Source: Bdellovibrionales bacterium
Lineage (GTDB): Bacteria; Bdellovibrionota; Bdellovibrionia; Bdellovibrionales; UBA1609
Direction: 5' to 3'
Assembly: GCA_028819545.1 (NCBI GenBank)
Contig: JAPPLG010000028.1
Span: forward strand, 5,646 to 69,645
DNA length: 64,000 nt
Below, one piece after another: positions 4,966 to 56,871 of the stretch; position 1 is the first letter of the stretch; each line of letters opens with the position of its first letter. Made by a program: the position numbers and the translations under genes. Below the pieces are notes generated by a model, which saw only the letters and a program-made list of their open reading frames with translations, ran no database searches and was not told the DNA's origin.

Positions 4966-5038
<73 letters not shown>

Positions 5039-5238
5039 TATTGAAAAATCAAGAAGCTGAAAAGCTATTTGATTTTTCATCGGAAAAGGAATCGAAATGA
5101 GAGAGCGACTTGTGTTGAACGCGAGAGTGTTTAATACAAGGCAGAAAATCTGGATGATTTTCTGAGAGAGCGAAGTGAGCCTACGCAGGAAATGAACAGG
5201 ATGTGAATGACCATAGTAGGCGATTCCGTCCCGAGCCA
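5039..5238 (+). mobile_element. miniature tRNA-associated element, copy 1: terminator-like hairpin, ~130-nt conserved structured module, exact 18-nt repeat of the tRNA-Phe 3' end
   Basis: CGATTCCGTCCCGAGCCA occurs at 5021-5038 (inside the tRNA) and at 5221-5238. Hairpin at 5043-5078. Module 5093-5220 aligns without gaps to 55072-55199, with compensatory stem substitutions. Confidence 0.55.
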
Positions 5239-5275
5239 CATTTGATCTTCTTTTAGAAAAAGAAGCAAAACCAAT

Positions 5276-5312: not shown

Positions 5313-5380
5313 AAATACTTTGTATAAGCGACTCAAGTCTCAGACACACAACTTGCTTGAGCCACTTATACAAAGTATTT
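5313..5380. repeat. hairpin (MITE-like) repeat, D family, short variant D1
   Basis: 16-bp terminal inverted repeats AAATACTTTGTATAAG / CTTATACAAAGTATTT with inner CTCAAG/CTTGAG. It is the reverse-oriented, internally deleted relative of 30598-30714. Confidence 0.75.
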
Positions 5381-6962: not shown

Positions 6963-9900
6963 ATGTCGATTATGAAAAAGACGGATGTTTTTTCTGTATT
7001 TCAACATATATTTCAATATGTTCTGATTCTTTTATTTTCTTTCTTTTGTATTTTTTCTTATGCGGAAACTTATTATGAGATACTTGGAGTTTCTCCAAAT
7101 GCTTCTCAAAAAGAGCTTAAGGATGCCCGTAATAGTTTGGTGCGTGAATACCATCCGGATAAACACCCAAATGCGAGTGAAAGTAGGAAAAAAGAACTGG
7201 CTGAAAAAACGGCGGAGATTAATAGAATATATGAAGAATTGTCTAATCCGGAAACAAGAAGAGCTTATGATGCAGATTTAAGATCAAGGCAAAATGACAA
7301 TAGAGTTTTTCAAGATGACATAAACTTTGAAGGACGAACTCCTCCCCCAGAGGAAGTAAAAGATGCGAGAGATTTGAAAGATCTCTATTTAAAAGAAGCT
7401 CGGCCTGTTGAAATTCAAACCAGGCCTTTGGAAAATCCATATGAAGTTTTAGAAGTCGAACGAAATGCAACAGAAATGCAGATAAACAGAGGATATAGCA
7501 GTCTGGATCGTAAACTTCGTCGTGATTTACATAAGCAGTTTAGACGGCTACATAGAACCCCAAGAGACTCTGCGGAGAAAGCTCCTTTAGAGCAAAAAAT
7601 TGATCAAATCATTCAAAAACTTCACAGACTTTATTCGGCTCATCAGGTTTTATCCCATTCAGTTTTAAGGGAGCAGTGGGATCGAGACGGCCGGATGGCT
7701 CTTCGGGGAACCTTTCTGTCATTTAAAGATATGAGGACAGGTTTATTTGTTCATTACTTCGAAGGTTATGATGGCAAGTTGTACGATATAGCAGAGTCAA
7801 ATGACGGCAGAAGAATTCATTTGATTCGCAGAATGAATCAAGCTCCTCCTTTTATAGGTTCTGAAACACATATCACTGATGTTTTACGTCTTGATACAAC
7901 GTTAAAATATGCAGGTGAATCTTTTGAAAATATGAAAGATATAGAAAAGCCAAATATTGCAGAATTAGAAGCAAAAGAATCAAAAACTTCCCAGTTGTTA
8001 AATAAATATAGAGAAATAATTCGGGATCGAGTGGCACGTGTTATGAATCAAAAGCGCAATATGGATGGTAGAGGTTTGCCAGTGGTTTCTGCAAGTGATG
8101 GAAGCTCAAGATCTCAAAGCTCTTCTCATACAGGGAAAAATCTGACTCGTCCCGGACAAGTCACATTTAAAGCAAGTCCTAGTCAATTAACTTTTGAAAC
8201 TTTAGATAGAATGATTCATCCTTTTGCTGAAAACTCCACACATCAATTGAAATTAACAGAAGCAATGAGACAACTGCCCCCCAATATGCTGAGTTTTTAT
8301 GCGGCTCTGGGAGCCTATATGTTCAGTAGAACTTATTGGGATTCTCACACGTATGATGGGGTTGAGGTGGATCCGGAATGGGAGCAGTCTATAGTTACTG
8401 CCATTTCCACACCTTTAGGATTATTTAGTCTTGCGGCCTTTGTGGTTGTGTCCGGACAAGTGACTCGGGGAATAGAAGTTGCTATTAATAAATACGTTAA
8501 TGTTAGAAAAAATAAAGATCTGTTCATGAATGTCAGAGGGTCCAAGCTAACACCAGATAATGTAGCGGCCAGTCGCAAATATTTTGAAGAAATTGAAACA
8601 TCTACAAGAAGAGCTACTAACGCTATTCGATCTCTTAGAATGCCTTTGTCATTATCTGCAGGGATGATGGTCAGTATGGCTATTATGGAATTAAATTATG
8701 ATCCTAATGCAATAGCTTGTTGGGATGGAATGAGGGAGCCAAATAAAAGAGGTTATAATTTTATGTCGGCCTGTGATCGTTTTTATCAGGACTGGAGTAG
8801 TTTTATTGAATTTTTAATTGTAACTCCTATGACATTTGGAGCTCTTGTAGGGGCTAATAAATGGGTGCACCCGAATAAAAGAGCTTTAGCAAAGGGAGTT
8901 ATAGGTATGCTCTGGATTGCAATGATGACATTTGAGATCAATGGTGAATTTCAAGACTGGGGTAAATTAAAAGAGTGGGCTCCAATGATGGCGACTATGA
9001 TAGCAGCTGGACTCAGTTTACAAGGGCTTGGGTGGTCTTTAAAAAAAATTAAGGGGATATATGATGCTTTTCAACTTAAAAAAGCTTCAACAGCTCAAGG
9101 ATCTTCTTCGAAAACAAAAAATACAAATCCCAGGATTTCAACAAATACCCGTCCTCAGGCTCTTCTGGAAGATATTTCAAATAACAGACGTTCTTTATCA
9201 AGGGTTGCAAATACAATAAAAAATGGAACTTTCTCTGCGGGAAAACGTTCTTTACTGTTTATGGTCAGCAGATTTGGAGGTTTTTTTTCTAGCGCTTTCT
9301 CCATTGGTGTATTTATCGCTCTGGATCATCTTTGGCATCCATTGATTGGAAAAAAACTGAGAGATGGAGTGGGAAAAGATATTGTATATAAAAAAGATCA
9401 ACTGAATTCTTATATTACAGGTTCAGGTACATGGAGTGATCAAAAGAGGGATTTTACTTTTTGGGAGCTTTGGCCTGATCAGGAGTGCTCTATATCCAAC
9501 CCTGCAGAGATGGGTTATGTTGAGTTGATAGGAGAAGTAGCTTTTAATAATAATCGAAGAAACTGTGCTGGAAGATTTTTAGCCCATCAATTGGATGATT
9601 TTTCTTCTCTCTTTTCTGATTGGAGAGAAAATCAATTGGGCATGTTTCCGCAGAAATATGGAAATTGGTCAAGAGATATTTCGCCTCTATTATTTTGGCA
9701 TAATGAAAATATGCACATTTTAGAAAGTACAGGGATATTGCCTGAAGGGCGGGAGACAAATCCTTTTCAGCGTCAGGTTAAACAAATTGAAGAAAATTGG
9801 ACAGGAATTCAATATCATAATCTTTCATGGGGAGATCCTCGTAAGAATATAAAAGGAAGCGATGAAATAAAAAGAATAAAAGATGATTTGTTAATGAATG

Positions 9901-12056
9901 AGGAAAAACGTCTGGAAATTGAAGAGTCTACTGTTTCTTGGTATCTTTTTGAGTATGGAAGCGAGGAGGATGTTCAATTAGAATCGATACAAGACTTTCG
10001 TGATAGGAATGCAGACGCCATAGAAAACTTAGTAAGAGAAAGAATATATATCACTCTTTTTTTGATTGATCAGGGAGTGGATGAAAGTCAAATTACAGAT
10101 GAGATGTTATTGGAAGTGAGTCAAAACAAATCTGATGAATTAGAGCAGTTTAAACAAAGAAAAGATCAGGAAATGCAACACCAATATTATAGCGAGCGGG
10201 TTCAAAGTAAAGTCATGGAAGTTGTAGTTAGAGAAAATTATTTGAATTTACCTTATAACTTGTTTAAATGGGCAGTGAATGAACTGGATCAATATATTGC
10301 TGAAAAAGGAAATAGCAGTGAGTTTCTCTTAAATAAAGAAATATTGTCGGACATTTATGACAGTAATTATCTGAATTTCAAACAAAGTGCTAACCTGTCA
10401 GAAGAAGAAACAGTAGGCTCTCTCAGAGCTTTATTTAATGCTGTAGATTTTAGTGTGCCTGTTTATAATTATTATGACAGACGTCAAATAGAAGAGTGTG
10501 AAAGAAATTTGAATTGTAATGAAGCTGTTTTACGAGCTAGAGCTGTATCGGCGGGTGTTGATCTTTTAAATCTAGTGTCTGGATTTTATAGAGCAGGTGG
10601 AGGCGAGTGGGGAGCGTCCGATCATTGGGAATTTATAGCAGATATTCGTAACTCCTTTAAAGACTTTCTTAATGGAAAAGATCCTCGTACGTACTCCACA
10701 CCTTTTGCCTTTAACTCTAATGATCAAATAATGGAATCCGGGATAGAATATCAAAGAGAAGGAAAGGGTTGGTTTGCCCCCTTAATGGATGGTTTGCCGG
10801 CTCATCCTATGAAGCATGTTGTGTATCAAATGGTGTGTGGAGCTGAATTGAATTCCTATTTCCCTCCAATAGATCAAACATGTACAGACCAGGATGACTT
10901 GAATCAATTAGCAGAAGAATTGCCTTCTATTGATAAAGTATTTAATAAGACCTCTTATATATTGAATATACCAAAAATTATTAGAGGGGAGGCGCCGGCC
11001 GGTATTTGTGATAAAAGCCCTTCTAAAGCTTTTGATACTCCCATTATTATTGGAAATAAAAGATATCAAAATTTGTTGGAGTATGTGTTGGATTTTCAAA
11101 ATATTAGATCCGATATTGATCAACTCTGGGAAGAAAAAGTGGAAAGTCAGTATTCTTTATTAATGGCATGCTTTGAAGATCTTTACGGCAAAATTTACAA
11201 CAATCATTTCTTGAAGCCTATACATTCAAAAGAAGTTTATACTGTAAATACTGCTATGGATAATACTGCGGCTTACTCTTCTTCTTTTGGTGGGGCGCCT
11301 GTTTACCCTGTTGTTTCTCAATCTGTTCCTATCAGTGCTGAAGTTCCAAAAGGAGTTCTGGAGTCTTTAATGAATCAAACAGAATTTTTATTTGATCTAT
11401 TAAAAAGAGTGTACACCTATAATGGTGAGATCTTACCGGAAAGAGTAAAAACTATAGAAAGTGCATGGAATAATCTGGATGGAGCACGAACCGTATTGCC
11501 TCATATATGTAAAGAACAAACAGACTTTACTTCATTACAGGAAAAAGCTTATATGAGTATAGAGTGTTCTGAGAAATTAACTTTAGATTTATTTGAATCT
11601 ATTGCAGAGCAAATTAAAGTTGAACAGTGTGGAAGTTTATTGCAATTTGAAGTTATCGAGATTATGGGAGACAGGTTTACATATATTCAAGAGCATATGA
11701 GATTTCTTATGATATCAGATTTAGATCCAATGCTTCCTCCTGACTACCCTGATGATAAGGTGTTTGCCAGAGCAGATTGTTTTGTCAATTCAACAAATAA
11801 ATGGTGTGATATGTATTCACTAAGACCTCGTGATACAGCGACACTTTTAATTGCTAAACATCATTTAGGTCAAGTCTTTAGAGATTTAATGGATTTGTAT
11901 ACGAAAGTCACTTTTTTCTCAGGGAATTCAACTCCGGAGGAATGTGATAGTATGCAGAACGAGGCGGAAAGGGTTCCCCTTATTCAAGAGGTTATAGATG
12001 AGTATCCAAAGTTATCCTTAGATGAGATATATTCTAGGGCTGTTTTTAATCAATAA
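6963..12056 (+). CDS. giant (1697 aa) signal-peptide/polytopic protein with an N-terminal J domain and a second degenerate J-like domain
   Basis: Signal-like N-terminus ([26 protein letters not shown]). Canonical J domain [34 protein letters not shown]...RRAYD. Second J-like segment [20 protein letters not shown]...LREQWDRDG has no HPD. About 7 hydrophobic helices lie between roughly residues 430 and 800. The ~900-aa C-terminal part has no motif I recognise. Confidence 0.85.
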   Translation: [1697 protein letters not shown]

Positions 12057-30597: not shown

Positions 30598-30714
30598 GCA
30601 AACACTTTGTATAAGTATCTCAAGCGAGTTCGGCTTTGATCATAGAGTGGCTGAAAGACCACTCTGTGGCAAAACGCATGTCTGAGCTTTGAGTTGCTTA
30701 TACAAAGTGTTTGC
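30598..30714. repeat. hairpin (MITE-like) repeat, D family, full-length copy D2
   Basis: 18-bp terminal inverted repeats GCAAACACTTTGTATAAG / CTTATACAAAGTGTTTGC. Inner CTCAAG...CTTTGAG and internal stem AGAGTGG/CCACTCT. The core CTCTGTGGCAAAACGCATGTCTGAGC is shared with 55257-55366. Confidence 0.8.
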
Positions 30715-30878
30715 CTGACCTCTCTTGTTTCTTAGTGTAGACGCCAGTCTATATACTCGAAGTTCTCTTATTTTCATATGAGAGTGGGCTCGTATTTTGA
30801 AAATTGTTTCTTACAAAAATGAGTCCTGTGGACTGATTTTTGTATGACATAAGAGAGAAAAGAGGACTTTGTGTAAAG

Positions 30879-54486: not shown

Positions 54487-54653
54487 ATCGACATAAGTGA
54501 TTTAGAATAAAAATTTATTTACATAGGGGTGTACTTTTAACTGAGATTAGATCTTTTTGGAGTAAAAGTAATCTGCAAGATATTTTGATGTCTTTCAGCT
54601 ATGTGTTCAGTATAAAATGTAACCCATGTCTCCGGTATGGACCCACTTTTTAT

Positions 54654-54729
54654 TGGCTCAGGTGGAGGGACTCGAACCCCCGACAGGGTGGTTAACAGCC
54701 ACCTGCTCTACCAACTGAGCTACACCTGA
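54654..54729 (-). tRNA. tRNA-Asn (GUU), CCA encoded
   Basis: Reverse complement: acceptor TCAGGTG/CACCTGA, anticodon arm GGTGG-CTGTTAA-CCACC, T arm GGGGG-TTCGAGT-CCCTC, then G-CCA. Confidence 0.9.
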
Positions 54730-54840
54730 AAATCCTTAAAAATGTAAACAATATGAGGGTTTTATGTCAATAACACTATTGTCTTATATTGATTTCGGTA
54801 TCTATAGAGGATAACTTAACTAATTGTGTTGTTTCAAAAT

Positions 54841-54927
54841 GGAGAGGTGGCAGAGCGGTTGATTGCACTGGTCTTGAAAACCAGCAGACCTTCGCGGGTC
54901 TCGTGAGTTCGAATCTCACCCTCTCCG
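54841..54927 (+). tRNA. tRNA-Ser (UGA), long variable arm
   Basis: Acceptor GGAGAGG/CCTCTCC, anticodon arm CTGGT-CTTGAAA-ACCAG, extra arm, T arm GTGAG-TTCGAAT-CTCAC. Confidence 0.92.
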
Positions 54928-55221
54928 TTTTGTGCAAAGGTTGCGAAGATATAAAAATAGTCCTATGGACTATTTTTATAAAAAACAACTTTCACAAATC
55001 AATAAAAGATGATTCTTCAAGCTAAGAGGGTCTGAATTGTTTTAGGTTGGCACCTAAAACAATTCAGGATTCGAAGTGAGCGAACGACTTATGACAAAAG
55101 CGAAAGTTTTTGTCATAAGGGATCAAAACAGGATGTTTTGATTAGTGAGTGAAGGGAGCCTACGCAAGGAATGAGCAGGAAGCGAGTGACTGTAGTGGGC
55201 GAATCTCACCCTCTCCGTTTT
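54928..55221 (+). mobile_element. miniature tRNA-associated element, copy 2: two perfect hairpins, ~130-nt conserved structured module, exact 22-nt repeat of the tRNA-Ser(UGA) 3' end and flank
   Basis: CGAATCTCACCCTCTCCGTTTT occurs at 54910-54931 and 55200-55221. Hairpins at 54951-54979 (13 bp) and 55034-55065 (14 bp, loop TGGC). Module 55072-55199 is homologous to 5093-5220. Confidence 0.55.
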
Positions 55222-55256: not shown

Positions 55257-55366
55257 ATTTTGTATCAGTGTCTCAAGCGAATTCAGATTTGATCACAGAG
55301 CAGACTGTATAAGTTTGCTCTGTGGCAAAACGCATGTCTGAGCCTTGAGGCATATTAATACAAAAT
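55257..55366. repeat. hairpin (MITE-like) repeat, D family, copy D3
   Basis: Terminal inverted repeats ATTTTGTAT.../...ATACAAAAT, inner CTCAAG/CTTGAG, internal stem CACAGAGCA/TGCTCTGTG. The core CTCTGTGGCAAAACGCATGTCTGAGCC is shared with D2. Confidence 0.75.
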
Positions 55367-55435
55367 ATTCTCGGAAAGTTCAAAAATAATGGGGTTTGAA
55401 GTCAAGGGTGCTGTCTGAGCTTAAATGAGGTTTAA

Positions 55436-56404
55436 TTATTTCTGAATGGAGCGTTTTTTCCATAAATCTTCTAATTGGTAATACTGTCTGAGATAGTCGT
55501 AAAAAATATGAATGATTAAAAAATTGTAATCCAATACAATCCATTGAGATAGAGTTTCTCCTTCAATGTATTGTGGGGAGATTCCATACATTTTATGGAT
55601 ATAGTTTTGTACGGATAGGCATAGTGATCGTACATGGCGGGTGTTTAAACCTGATGTCACTAAGATGGATTCATAAATTGTTTCTTTAAATTGAAATAAT
55701 TGGGGGTTTAAAGCGCCTTTCTCGGCTAAAAAAGTGGTGATGTCATTAAATACCTGATTTTGAGAAGATGTATCTTTCAAATATTTATAATGCTTTTGGA
55801 TCAATGGGGTGGTTTTAGGATGTAACATTTCTGAAACAGGTAAATCCAACTTAAGTTTATTTCTAACTTGAGTGGAAGAAATATTTTGAAACCTTATGGG
55901 TTCAATTAAATTTAGTGTTTTCCCTGTATTTAATTCTCCTTTATTTTTGTCCAATTTTTTTAGATATTTTTGAAAGATGACAGGCCAGTTTTTTTTCTTT
56001 TTAAAATCTGTATGAGAGAAAATAATTAAGTTTACTTTATGGAGAATTTGCTCGAAATTTTTCCAGGAGTGAAGTTGAAAAAACAGCTCTTCTCCAAGAA
56101 TAAGATAGACTTCTTCTTTTTCCAAAGAGAGTTGATTAAGAGTGTCTATAGTGTAGCTGGTATCTCGTCTCTTTATTTCAAGGTCTAATACTTTAACTTT
56201 AGGGATGTCTTTAAAGGATTCTGTAATTATTTCCAAACGCTCTTCAGGTTTTATTTGAGACAGATCTTTACCCGGAGTTTGATAAGATGGAATGATATAA
56301 ATGTCATCTAAATTCATTTCTTGTATGCAAGTTTCAACAACCCATCTATGTCCTTTATGAGGAGGATCAAAACTGCCTCCAAATATTCCTATTTTTCTTC
56401 TCAT
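55436..56404 (-). CDS. nadD: fusion protein: nicotinate-nucleotide adenylyltransferase (NadD) + ribosomal silencing factor RsfS
   Basis: N-terminal IGIFGGSFDPPHKGH ... ISSTQVR (NadD). The C-terminal ~110 aa, LVTSGLNTRHVRSLCLSV...WIVLDYNFLIIHIFYDYLRQYYQLEDLW, matches the RsfS/iojap signature (W.v.D.g.v.vH.f....R.yY.LE.LW). Confidence 0.85.
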   Translation of the reverse strand: MRRKIGIFGGSFDPPHKGHRWVVETCIQEMNLDDIYIIPSYQTPGKDLSQIKPEERLEIITESFKDIPKVKVLDLEIKRRDTSYTIDTLNQLSLEKEEVYLILGEELFFQLHSWKNFEQILHKVNLIIFSHTDFKKKKNWPVIFQKYLKKLDKNKGELNTGKTLNLIEPIRFQNISSTQVRNKLKLDLPVSEMLHPKTTPLIQKHYKYLKDTSSQNQVFNDITTFLAEKGALNPQLFQFKETIYESILVTSGLNTRHVRSLCLSVQNYIHKMYGISPQYIEGETLSQWIVLDYNFLIIHIFYDYLRQYYQLEDLWKKRSIQK

Positions 56405-56871
56405 ATTGTATTTTTCTTTTTTATCTGTAAATCAATTTCCAAGCTTTGGCTTTTGCCAAATACTCCCACTTTATTGGGAGCTTGATTGATACTATTTTTA
56501 AAATAGTTGTTTCCTCGCCCTCCTCGCCCTCCTTTTATAAGGAGATAAGGTGCATCTTCGCCAATTAAAATTTCAAGATTTTTGGTTTTTAGCCATGTAT
56601 GAGGGGGCACCTCAATAATCAGGTTTTTTCCTTTACGCCCTGTCTGGCGTCTGGATTTTCCAGGCCTGCCGTCTTCAGCCTTATAAATTTTATTTTTATT
56701 TAAATGAGATAAAGAACTTTTCTGGTTATTGACTTCTATCCACACATCTCCGCCTCGTCCTCCATCTCCTCCATCTGGTCCTCCTCGAACCTTTCTTCGG
56801 GAAGAAGCGAAACTTAAACACCCTCTACCGCCTTTTCCAGAACTGACTTTTAAGCGGATTTTATGGATCAT
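56401..56871 (-). CDS. obg: stand-alone Obg-fold (GTP1/OBG N-terminal) domain protein; no GTPase domain
   Basis: Gly-rich Obg-fold motifs KGGRGCLSF, RGGPDGGDGGRGGDV, GGRGGRGN. The ORF ends (..LEIDLQIKKKNTI*) where the G domain normally begins, with an ATGA overlap onto nadD. Confidence 0.8.
   Translation of the reverse strand: MIHKIRLKVSSGKGGRGCLSFASSRRKVRGGPDGGDGGRGGDVWIEVNNQKSSLSHLNKNKIYKAEDGRPGKSRRQTGRKGKNLIIEVPPHTWLKTKNLEILIGEDAPYLLIKGGRGGRGNNYFKNSINQAPNKVGVFGKSQSLEIDLQIKKKNTI

Follow-up and report, generated by a model that had tools for sequence, protein, structure and literature searches.

The 64,000-nucleotide (nt) stretch of contig JAPPLG010000028.1 analysed here (the window), from an uncultured bacterium of the Bdellovibrionales, carries two copies of a small protein-less repeat unit, one directly downstream of the tRNA-Phe(GAA) gene and one directly downstream of the tRNA-Ser(UGA) gene (Table 1). 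In both copies the tRNA gene is followed by a spacer, by a module of ~135 nt consisting of four helices, and by a second copy of the tRNA 3' end that starts at C56 in the T loop. The duplicated 3' ends had been noticed in an initial annotation made from the letters of the DNA alone, and pattern searches of the window bear this out. The 18-mer CGATTCCGTCCCGAGCCA occurs exactly twice, at 5021-5038 and 5221-5238 (0.02 occurrences expected at up to 3 mismatches), and the 22-mer CGAATCTCACCCTCTCCGTTTT likewise exactly twice, at 54910-54931 and 55200-55221 (0.00 expected). The modules align without gaps, 5087-5226 with 55066-55205, at 73.6% over 140 nt (E = 1e-19), which agrees with the 94 of 129 identical positions that had been counted by hand in the initial annotation.

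At the Phe site the left repeat copy consists of the final 18 nt of the tRNA gene, which has no encoded CCA. The right copy shares its first base, C5221, with helix P4, and positions 5221-5227 form the 3' strand of helix P1. After the right copy comes the native terminator hairpin of the tRNA, the same as at empty sites in relatives, and the spacer is missing from those sites. Spacers are usually terminator-like, with an A-run, a hairpin and a T-run; judged by eye, that of the Phe copy is homologous to those of the copies at tRNA-Gly, tRNA-Tyr and tRNA-Asn described below.

Table 1. Features of the two repeat units in the window
Feature	Position	Strand	Detail
tRNA-Phe(GAA), target gene	4966..5038	+	ARAGORN, Rfam, pattern search
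Left direct-repeat copy at Phe	5021-5038	+	C56 to discriminator
Phe-copy spacer, element-borne	5039..5087	+	A-run/hairpin/T-run; terminator-like inverted repeat ~5042-5079
Phe antisense segment GGAATCGAA	5088..5096	+	exact reverse complement of tRNA-Phe T54-C62; 5' strand of closing helix P1
Phe-copy constant core	5097..5220	+	purine-rich junction (GAARUGA..GA...AC), P2, P3, junction between P3 and P4 (J3/4), GAGCCTACGCA, P4
Phe-copy P2	5109-5122/5127-5140		GAGA loop
Phe-copy P3	5142-5150/5156-5164		
Invariant GAGCCTACGCA in Phe-copy core	5177-5187		
Phe-copy P4	5179-5184/5216-5221		internal tandem G·A
Right direct-repeat copy at Phe	5221..5238	+	C56 to discriminator
Native tRNA-Phe terminator hairpin	5247-5265		
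tRNA-Ser(UGA)	54840-54928	+	ARAGORN, Rfam
Left repeat copy at Ser	54910-54931	+	C56 to 3' end plus TTTT
Ser-copy spacer, element-borne	54932..55066	+	two hairpins, ~54950-54980 and ~55032-55067
Ser antisense segment GGATTCGAA	55067..55075	+	complementary to tRNA-Ser T loop TTCGAATC(U), one G·U pair
Ser-copy constant core	55076..55199	+	P2 55088-55119 (GAAA loop), P3 55121-55143, GAGCCTACGCA 55156-55166, P4 ending 55200
Right copy of 22-nt Ser direct repeat	55200..55221	+	C56 to 3' end plus TTTT

Insertion into the 3' part of tRNA genes

The scaffold to which the window belongs comes from a metagenome and is 120 kb long. Related loci, numbered L006 to L019 where they have to be told apart, were reached through homologues of the neighbouring BacA and NadD-RsfS proteins and are syntenic in metagenome genomes. 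A covariance model was built from seven copies of the module and used to search ~0.34 Mb of related Bdellovibrionales sequence, as had been proposed in the initial annotation. It found 11 copies in 5 related metagenome genomes, one of them OZ240230.1. All 11 lie directly downstream of a tRNA gene and in the sense of that tRNA, and none was found elsewhere. Occurrence of the module at many non-tRNA sites had been named as evidence that would speak against a tRNA-linked element; no such copy is among the 11. The tRNA is tRNA-Phe in three genomes and tRNA-Ser(UGA) in four, while tRNA-Tyr, tRNA-Thr(UGU), tRNA-Gly(UCC) and tRNA-Asn are occupied once each. A search of the window with filters off gave no further copy above noise, and the tRNA-Arg(ACG), tRNA-Ser(GCU) and tRNA-Asn genes of the window are unoccupied, as is tRNA-Thr(GGU) in OZ240230.1. 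The insert measures ~200-290 bp and the order of its parts is the same in the copies: the tRNA, a spacer of 40-139 nt, a segment antisense to the tRNA T arm, a constant junction, P2, P3, a purine-rich junction, P4 and the tRNA sequence from C56 onwards.

Comparison with relatives identifies the unit as an insertion, because both the tRNA-Phe and the tRNA-Ser sites are empty in some of them. In L006 the tRNA-Phe gene is followed directly by CATTTTGATCTTCTTTTAGAAAAAGAAG, the sequence that comes after the second 18-mer in the window. Exact empty tRNA-Phe sites, which the initial annotation had suggested looking for, are present in L006, L008, L011 and the distant L016, and the Phe element is present in L007 (the same locus as L014) and in L012. 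The tRNA-Ser(UGA) site is filled in the window, in OZ240230.1 and in L017, decayed in L019 and empty in L018. L008 and L018 belong to one genome, whose tRNA-Asn site is unoccupied too. On a tree built from two flanking proteins, genomes with and without the element are intermingled, which indicates at least two events of gain or loss. In L017 (minus strand, 10990-11085) the intact Ser module has an older, 5'-truncated module in tandem on its distal side, of which the 3' half of P3 and a degenerate P4 are left; beyond it comes a third tRNA-Ser repeat, partial and degenerate. This tandem arrangement is the expected residue of repeated insertion at one tRNA. The contig of L009, from a close relative, ends at 10928, exactly at the final base of tRNA-Phe, which fits either an assembly break at the repeat or the coexistence of filled and empty alleles in the population.

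The start of the direct repeat is fixed at C56 and its outer end is variable, with lengths of 18, 19, 21, 22, 23, 25 and ~58 bp. The longest, that of the Ser copy in OZ240230.1, takes in 38 nt of gene trailer, and across the copies the trailer ranges from 0 to 38 nt. Since the occupied tRNA genes have no encoded CCA and the repeats bear trailer instead, the copied sequence must derive from the gene or a precursor and not from the mature tRNA. A primer-binding site of the retroviral type was rejected for this reason, and because the repeats are in tRNA sense. The variable outer boundary also rules out a target-site duplication made by a staggered cut, as well as a guide of defined length.

The last point bears on one of two readings put forward in the initial annotation, namely that the unit encodes a scaffold RNA of the kind used by TnpB (omega-RNA) or in the homing of Cas12k transposons (CRISPR RNA, crRNA), with an 18-nt or so 3' guide directed against the tRNA gene. 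The arrangement of a structured scaffold followed by sequence identical to the tRNA 3' end does recall such RNAs. However, the length of the 3' segment varies from 18 to ~58 nt, the segment runs into the trailer, and the empty sites identify it as a duplication made by insertion. There are no tnpB, iscB, cas12k or tns genes, no IS200/605 ends and no CRISPR repeats at the loci, and nothing in Rfam matches the module. In this literal form the reading is largely refuted and very improbable. What survives of it is the general idea of a structured tRNA-sense RNA bearing sequence that matches the target.

Fold of the module and its antisense segment

The four helices, P1 to P4, form on the tRNA-sense strand, the strand that had been proposed from the G-U pairs. 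In shuffling tests the + strand of the two window modules gives z-scores of -4.8 and -4.9, compared with -3.0 for the - strand. In an alignment of nine copies, G·T or T·G occupies 23 pair cells and A·C or C·A only 3, and this excess indicates that it is the tRNA-sense strand that folds. When the 11 copies from 5 genomes are aligned to the model, 97.1% of pair cells are paired, compared with 34-43% when the partners are slid, and double changes are found in 25 of the 41 pairs, a count reached by 0 of 500 shuffles. The covariation first seen between the two window modules is thus also present in the larger alignment. A MAFFT alignment of seven copies has double substitutions in 20 of the 41 pairs.

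The constant junction reads GAARUGA..GA...AC. It is followed by P2, which has 14 bp and in 5 of 9 copies a GNRA loop, and by P3, which has 9 bp. The first of these helices had been described with 12 bp; its four double substitutions and two changes from G-U to Watson-Crick pairs stand, but the helix is two pairs longer. The compensatory changes described in P3 also stand, with four double changes instead of three. A purine-rich junction after P3 terminates in the invariant GAGCCUACGCA. P4 consists of the GCCUAC/GURGGC stem, which adjoins the tRNA-derived segment as had been reported, and, as read from the nine-copy alignment, of an internal helix holding tandem G·A. The Phe module of OZ240230.1 (L007 11080-11140, equal to L014 3730-3792) has a partial duplication of ~30 nt in P4, with ACAACTGTAG repeated, which suggests that P4 tolerates changes in length. 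The motif content favours RNA over single-stranded DNA, short of proof.

The cores of the modules group by tRNA. The Phe copies of three genomes are 83-94% identical and the Ser copies 84%, while paralogues within one genome are only 62-82% identical. The insertions therefore predate the split of these genomes, and there was no recent burst of movement. Orthologous pairs show two to three doubly compensated base pairs and at most one broken pair. The fold has therefore been under selection since insertion, unlike a decaying remnant of an attachment (att) site. Some copies have decayed, namely those at tRNA-Asn and tRNA-Tyr, that of L019 and the distal one of L017.

These results can be set against the other reading of the initial annotation, a miniature integrative element whose att sites arose by crossover in the T loop. 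Part of it stands: the empty sites, the repeat start at C56, the variable repeat and the tandem arrangement in L017 all agree with it. In its strict form the units would be remnants comparable to cis-mobilisable integrative elements (CIMEs), that is, islands integrated into T loops by a tyrosine integrase that have since lost their interiors, the 135 nt being a double-stranded arm of attP next to attR without any RNA function. Repeats of tRNA 3' ends with one fixed start and variable length are what blocks of att identity look like, empty sites exist, a tandem array carries its older copy distally, and the element supplies a terminator for the tRNA. Nevertheless, 23 G·U against 3 A·C cells and doubly compensated changes between orthologues would not be expected in a double-stranded protein-binding arm, so that a decayed att remnant fails to explain the conserved, strand-specific and covarying fold. 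Independent internal deletions would also have had to produce identical boundaries at each of six tRNAs, and a classical attP has no role for a segment, 125 nt from the core, that is antisense to the T arm. The window and the related loci yielded neither an integrase nor an island or autonomous relative, and phage, plasmid and IMG/VR collections gave no matches. Covariation thus disfavours a CIME remnant, which we regard as unlikely.

One feature had been overlooked in the initial annotation, the closing helix P1 with the antisense segment that forms its 5' strand. The two strands of P1 are GGAAUCG (5088-5094) and the tRNA-derived CGAUUCC in the Phe copy, and GGAUUCG and CGAAUCU in the Ser copy. 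At the DNA level, the 5' strand of this helix is reverse-complementary to 6-12 nt of the T loop and T stem of the cognate tRNA. Counted from T54, the number of Watson-Crick pairs between the segment and its own tRNA is 9 for Phe, 8 for Ser, 12 for Tyr, 10 for Thr, 12 for Asn and 6 for Gly. If G·U is allowed, the cognate tRNA is the best or tied best match in 8 of the 11 copies. In the Tyr copy, where the 3' tRNA copy is damaged, and in the Asn copy, where it is lost, the 12-nt match of the segment to the genuine tRNA persists. The 5' antisense segment is a better candidate for a guide than the tRNA-derived segment at the 3' end.

The module may also be read as a folded att site of single-stranded DNA, like attP of CTXphi or attC of integrons. 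The element would then move as tRNA-sense single-stranded DNA, P1 stacked on P4 would mimic the duplex of the tRNA gene near position 55/56, a tyrosine recombinase would exchange one strand, and replication would resolve the product. The geometry of P1 stacked on P4 is compatible with such a site. The strand-specific fold tolerates G·T, P1 reproduces the T-loop duplex and adjoins the constant GCCTAC/GTAGGC helix in each intact copy, the geometry yields the observed order of tRNA, repeat, spacer, antisense segment, core and repeat, and no promoter is needed. On the other hand, the module has loops of the GNRA type, tandem G·A and purine-rich junctions that are long and conserved, all of them more characteristic of RNA, P1 has just 6-10 bp, a circle of ~200 nt would be without any function for replication or transfer, and neither a recombinase candidate nor a context of single-stranded DNA phages or plasmids was found at the loci. 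We consider this possibility, too, an unlikely one.

The antisense segment may also act on the tRNA itself. In the predicted minimum-free-energy fold of a co-transcript of tRNA-Phe and the element, the segment pairs with the T loop of the tRNA proper, and the acceptor stem is closed by the 3' copy further downstream. This fold is a lead and not evidence. It would suit a domesticated, tRNA-linked RNA that is co-transcribed with the tRNA and tunes its maturation or level, with the genuine T arm sequestered by the antisense segment and replaced by the downstream 3' copy; mobility would then be a matter of history. The long conservation of the fold between orthologues agrees with a service to the host, as do the predicted pairings of the antisense segment with the genuine T loop and of the 5' acceptor strand with the downstream copy. 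The match of the segment to the genuine tRNA is moreover 2 nt longer than that to the module's own copy, and it is kept where the own copy is damaged. Against this, close relatives lack the module at the same tRNA and have no visible substitute, copies decay, a terminator-like hairpin parts the tRNA from the module, and the arrival of the unit at six tRNAs is left unexplained. We regard a host-serving RNA as an unlikely explanation.

Candidate mechanisms and neighbouring sequences

Taken together, the units are insertions specific for tRNA genes, with a repeat boundary at C56, a strand-specific covarying fold, ends matched to the target and long-term conservation. The best explanation, to which we give a probability of about 45%, is that they form an old, lineage-specific family of protein-less, non-autonomous elements of ~200-290 bp that home to the 3' part of tRNA genes in uncultured Bdellovibrionales and are maintained by selection, and whose structured RNA, their sole cargo, probably pairs with the target on behalf of an enzyme acting in trans. 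Each copy behaves as DNA inserted at position 55/56 of the T loop. Its left end brings its own version of the tRNA sequence that starts at nt 56, complete to the 3' end and extended by 0-38 nt of trailer, so that the tRNA remains intact. Transcription of the module would start at the tRNA promoter, by read-through, or at a promoter that went unrecognised. A recombinase-type enzyme encoded at another place in the genome may then use the resulting RNA as its cofactor for specificity and recognition, the RNA reading the T arm of the target by base pairing, with the antisense segment as the putative reader and the constant junctions and P2 to P4 as a scaffold for protein binding. Strand exchange at 55/56 would result in the direct repeat.

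Several searches were made for genes and families that could belong to such a system. Pfam scans of 30 of the 47 larger open reading frames (ORFs) of the window found no recombinase, transposase, reverse transcriptase (RT) or nuclease effector, and every ORF with a match is a housekeeping gene. Integrase, TnpB/IscB or Cas12-like genes had been suggested as possible neighbours of the module; no integrase, TnpB/IscB or Cas gene is present in the window or near any copy in the related loci examined. Rfam gave no match beyond tRNAs and noise, either for the window at gathering thresholds or for the Phe locus and the three-copy region of L015 at permissive E-values. Exact-pattern scans gave 0 matches in IMG/VR, 0 in GTDB genomes and, in Joint Genome Institute (JGI) metagenomes, two chance matches within coding regions; in a relaxed pattern scan of GTDB genomes, OZ240230.1 was the only genome found. 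The modules had no blastn match in phage and plasmid collections. The modules are traversed by an open reading frame on the antisense strand; a search of 5.8 billion proteins with a profile of this frame, meant to detect spurious gene calls over further copies, found nothing. The literature searched contains no description of an element with this combination of features.

Several points speak against a homing family with a targeting RNA. No recombinase, transposase, RT or nuclease gene was found near any copy or in the window, and no autonomous relative of the element was found. A scan for sigma-70 promoters found none on the + strand between tRNA and module, and a terminator-like hairpin precedes the module, so that transcription is unproven. 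There are no near-identical paralogues and hence no sign of recent movement, and empty sites could have lost the unit through simple deletion between the repeats. The covariation counts are partly drawn from model-fitted alignments, and the related sequence searched amounts to ~0.34 Mb only. The antisense segment of the Gly copy fits tRNA-Asn (11 pairs, one of them G·U) better than tRNA-Gly (6 pairs, then a mismatch). This mismatch to its own tRNA argues against re-templating of the segment from the target at each insertion; it suggests that the copy hopped from one T arm to a similar one and has adapted only in part.

An RNA-like module without a gene of its own may also be a non-autonomous retroelement or a ribozyme. 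Its read-through RNA would be copied by an RT encoded elsewhere, or would reverse-splice, with the tRNA-sense 3' tail annealing to the target. The fold is RNA-like, a 3' tail with variable trailer is what a read-through transcript ending at the native terminator would have, and a repeat boundary that is fixed 5' and ragged 3' is in keeping with this. But no RT was found in the sequence examined, no model of a group II intron, retron or self-cleaving ribozyme matched, hallmarks, poly-A-like or other, are missing, and trailer in place of CCA in the repeats means that the mature tRNA was neither primer nor template. We consider this explanation rather improbable. Hammerhead, twister-sister and HDV-like cores were considered and rejected; a GAGCC that recalls domain V of group II introns is a superficial likeness, as the pairing does not fit.

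A bolder form of the homing explanation is that the module is the RNA part of an undescribed RNA-directed system of site-specific recombination or homing, or a small catalytic RNA that inserts itself; its antisense segment would read the T arm of one particular tRNA gene, and changes of a few nt would have reprogrammed the family to at least six tRNAs. We class the family conservatively with the tRNA-targeting integrative elements and put the odds of a new, RNA-programmed class of homing system at about one in five.

Other repeats and rearrangements were noted at the same loci. Downstream of tRNA-Phe, tRNA-Ser(UGA) and tRNA-Arg(ACG) there is a second repeat family, a palindromic hairpin that is long and nearly perfect (…ACTTTGTATAAGCGACTCAAGTCTCAGACAC…CTTGAGCCACTTATACAAAGT…; window 5313-5380, 55290-55385 and 30600-30745; L006 11020-11090; L007 11215-11285). 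Since L006 has it at its empty Phe site as well, it is independent of the module. In L012 (11140-11860) three tandem units of ~240 bp lie downstream of the Phe module, each starting with the native terminator hairpin of tRNA-Phe. A further motif downstream of tRNAs, with and without the module, consists of the hairpin CAGTCCACAGGACTC, a T-run and then GTAAGAAACAATTTTCAAAA (window ~30800-30850 on the minus strand and ~54985; L015 ~7640-7665; L019 11855-11900); it is probably a tRNA terminator or operator typical of the lineage. The divergent pair of tRNA-Asn and tRNA-Ser(UGA) at 54650-54930 of the window is inverted relative to nadD-rsfS in L018 and L019 (11000-11850), and in L018 a stretch of ~3 kb of small unannotated ORFs follows tRNA-Ser. 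Near the Phe site, an ORF of 1697 amino acids (aa; 6963-12056) has an N-terminal DnaJ domain as its sole recognisable part; it is also present in L012 and missing at the same position in L006, L007, L008 and L011. Near the Ser site (55436-56871, minus strand) there is an ORF of 156 aa with an N-terminal GTP1/OBG fold alone, without the GTPase domain, followed directly by a fused NadD-RsfS ORF, and this arrangement is kept in L017-L019.

Relation to known systems

If it is true that the RNA of the module sets the target, the family would represent a new and very compact form of nucleic-acid-programmed DNA insertion, alongside bridge RNAs, omega-RNAs and group II introns, and one naturally tuned to safe-harbour sites, the 3' ends of tRNA genes. 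Even the conservative reading defines a new family of structured RNA, with long-term selection, strict linkage to tRNA genes and an unusual closing helix made of target-derived sequence. Its filled, empty, tandem and decayed sites at six target tRNAs also provide a natural series for the study of target switching by tRNA-specific elements.

The likeness to TnpB omega-RNAs and Cas12k crRNAs lies in a scaffold with 3' sequence identical to a tRNA gene. Here, in contrast, the repeat is variable and made by insertion, effector and transposase genes are missing, and there is no fixed distance between target and insertion. The omega-RNA of a TnpB element overlaps the 3' end of tnpB and the right end of the insertion sequence (IS), and its guide is the unduplicated flank beside a TAM; here neither tnpB nor IS ends were found, Rfam gave no match, and the flank is duplicated over a variable length. 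For a CRISPR-associated transposon of type V-K, the loci contain no CRISPR repeat, cas12k or tnsB/tnsC/tniQ, and the insert abuts or overlaps its target instead of lying ~60-66 bp away. Nor do the units resemble miniature inverted-repeat transposable elements, which have terminal inverted repeats recognised by a transposase and a target-site duplication of fixed length; the inverted segments of the units are target-derived and differ between tRNAs, and the duplication measures 18 to ~58 bp. A closing helix such as a1/a2 is shared with the non-coding RNAs of retrons, but no RT adjoins any copy.

The bridge (seek) RNAs of IS110/IS1111 elements and the pairing of exon- and intron-binding sites (EBS-IBS) in group II introns are closer in principle. 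In all of these an RNA-like, non-coding structured module is carried on the element, short segments (6-12 nt here) covary with the target, and members are tuned to different targets. The family differs in that no ORF, DEDD recombinase or intron-encoded protein adjoins any copy, and in its fold, which is four-way and closed by target-derived strands and does not consist of two internal guide loops or of domains I-VI. Its sense and antisense target segments overlap in the one closing helix and pair with each other, and there is no similarity to either in Rfam. With a core of ~125 nt, it matched no intron model and has only the idea of target pairing in common with group II introns.

In attP(+) of CTXphi and attC of integrons, as in the module, the fold is specific to one strand, and pairing between two inverted segments yields a duplex that mimics the chromosomal target; in the integrated form, part of the site is also repeated in inverted orientation ~100 nt away from one of the junctions. 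The module differs in its target, the T loop of a tRNA gene instead of dif or attI, and in the conserved multi-helix fold with RNA-like motifs that lies between the segments; no XerCD or IntI sites were recognised in it.

The closest known relatives in behaviour are the integrative elements of the T-loop sublocation class at tRNA genes and their CIMEs. No cognate integrase was found in the window or the related loci, nor an autonomous element with the same att in IMG/VR or the phage and plasmid collections. As in these elements, direct repeats of the tRNA 3' end (attL and attR) flank the insert, the tRNA is intact at attL, and unoccupied attB sites are present in relatives (at tRNA-Phe in four loci and at tRNA-Ser in L018). 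Both insert into the 3' part of a tRNA gene and re-supply its 3' end, and both have a repeat with a fixed start in the tRNA and a variable outer end, tandem accretion and precise empty sites. What sets the family apart from CIMEs is a unit of 200-290 bp without a gene, a strand-specific, covarying fold of four helices, and an internal segment antisense to the T arm.

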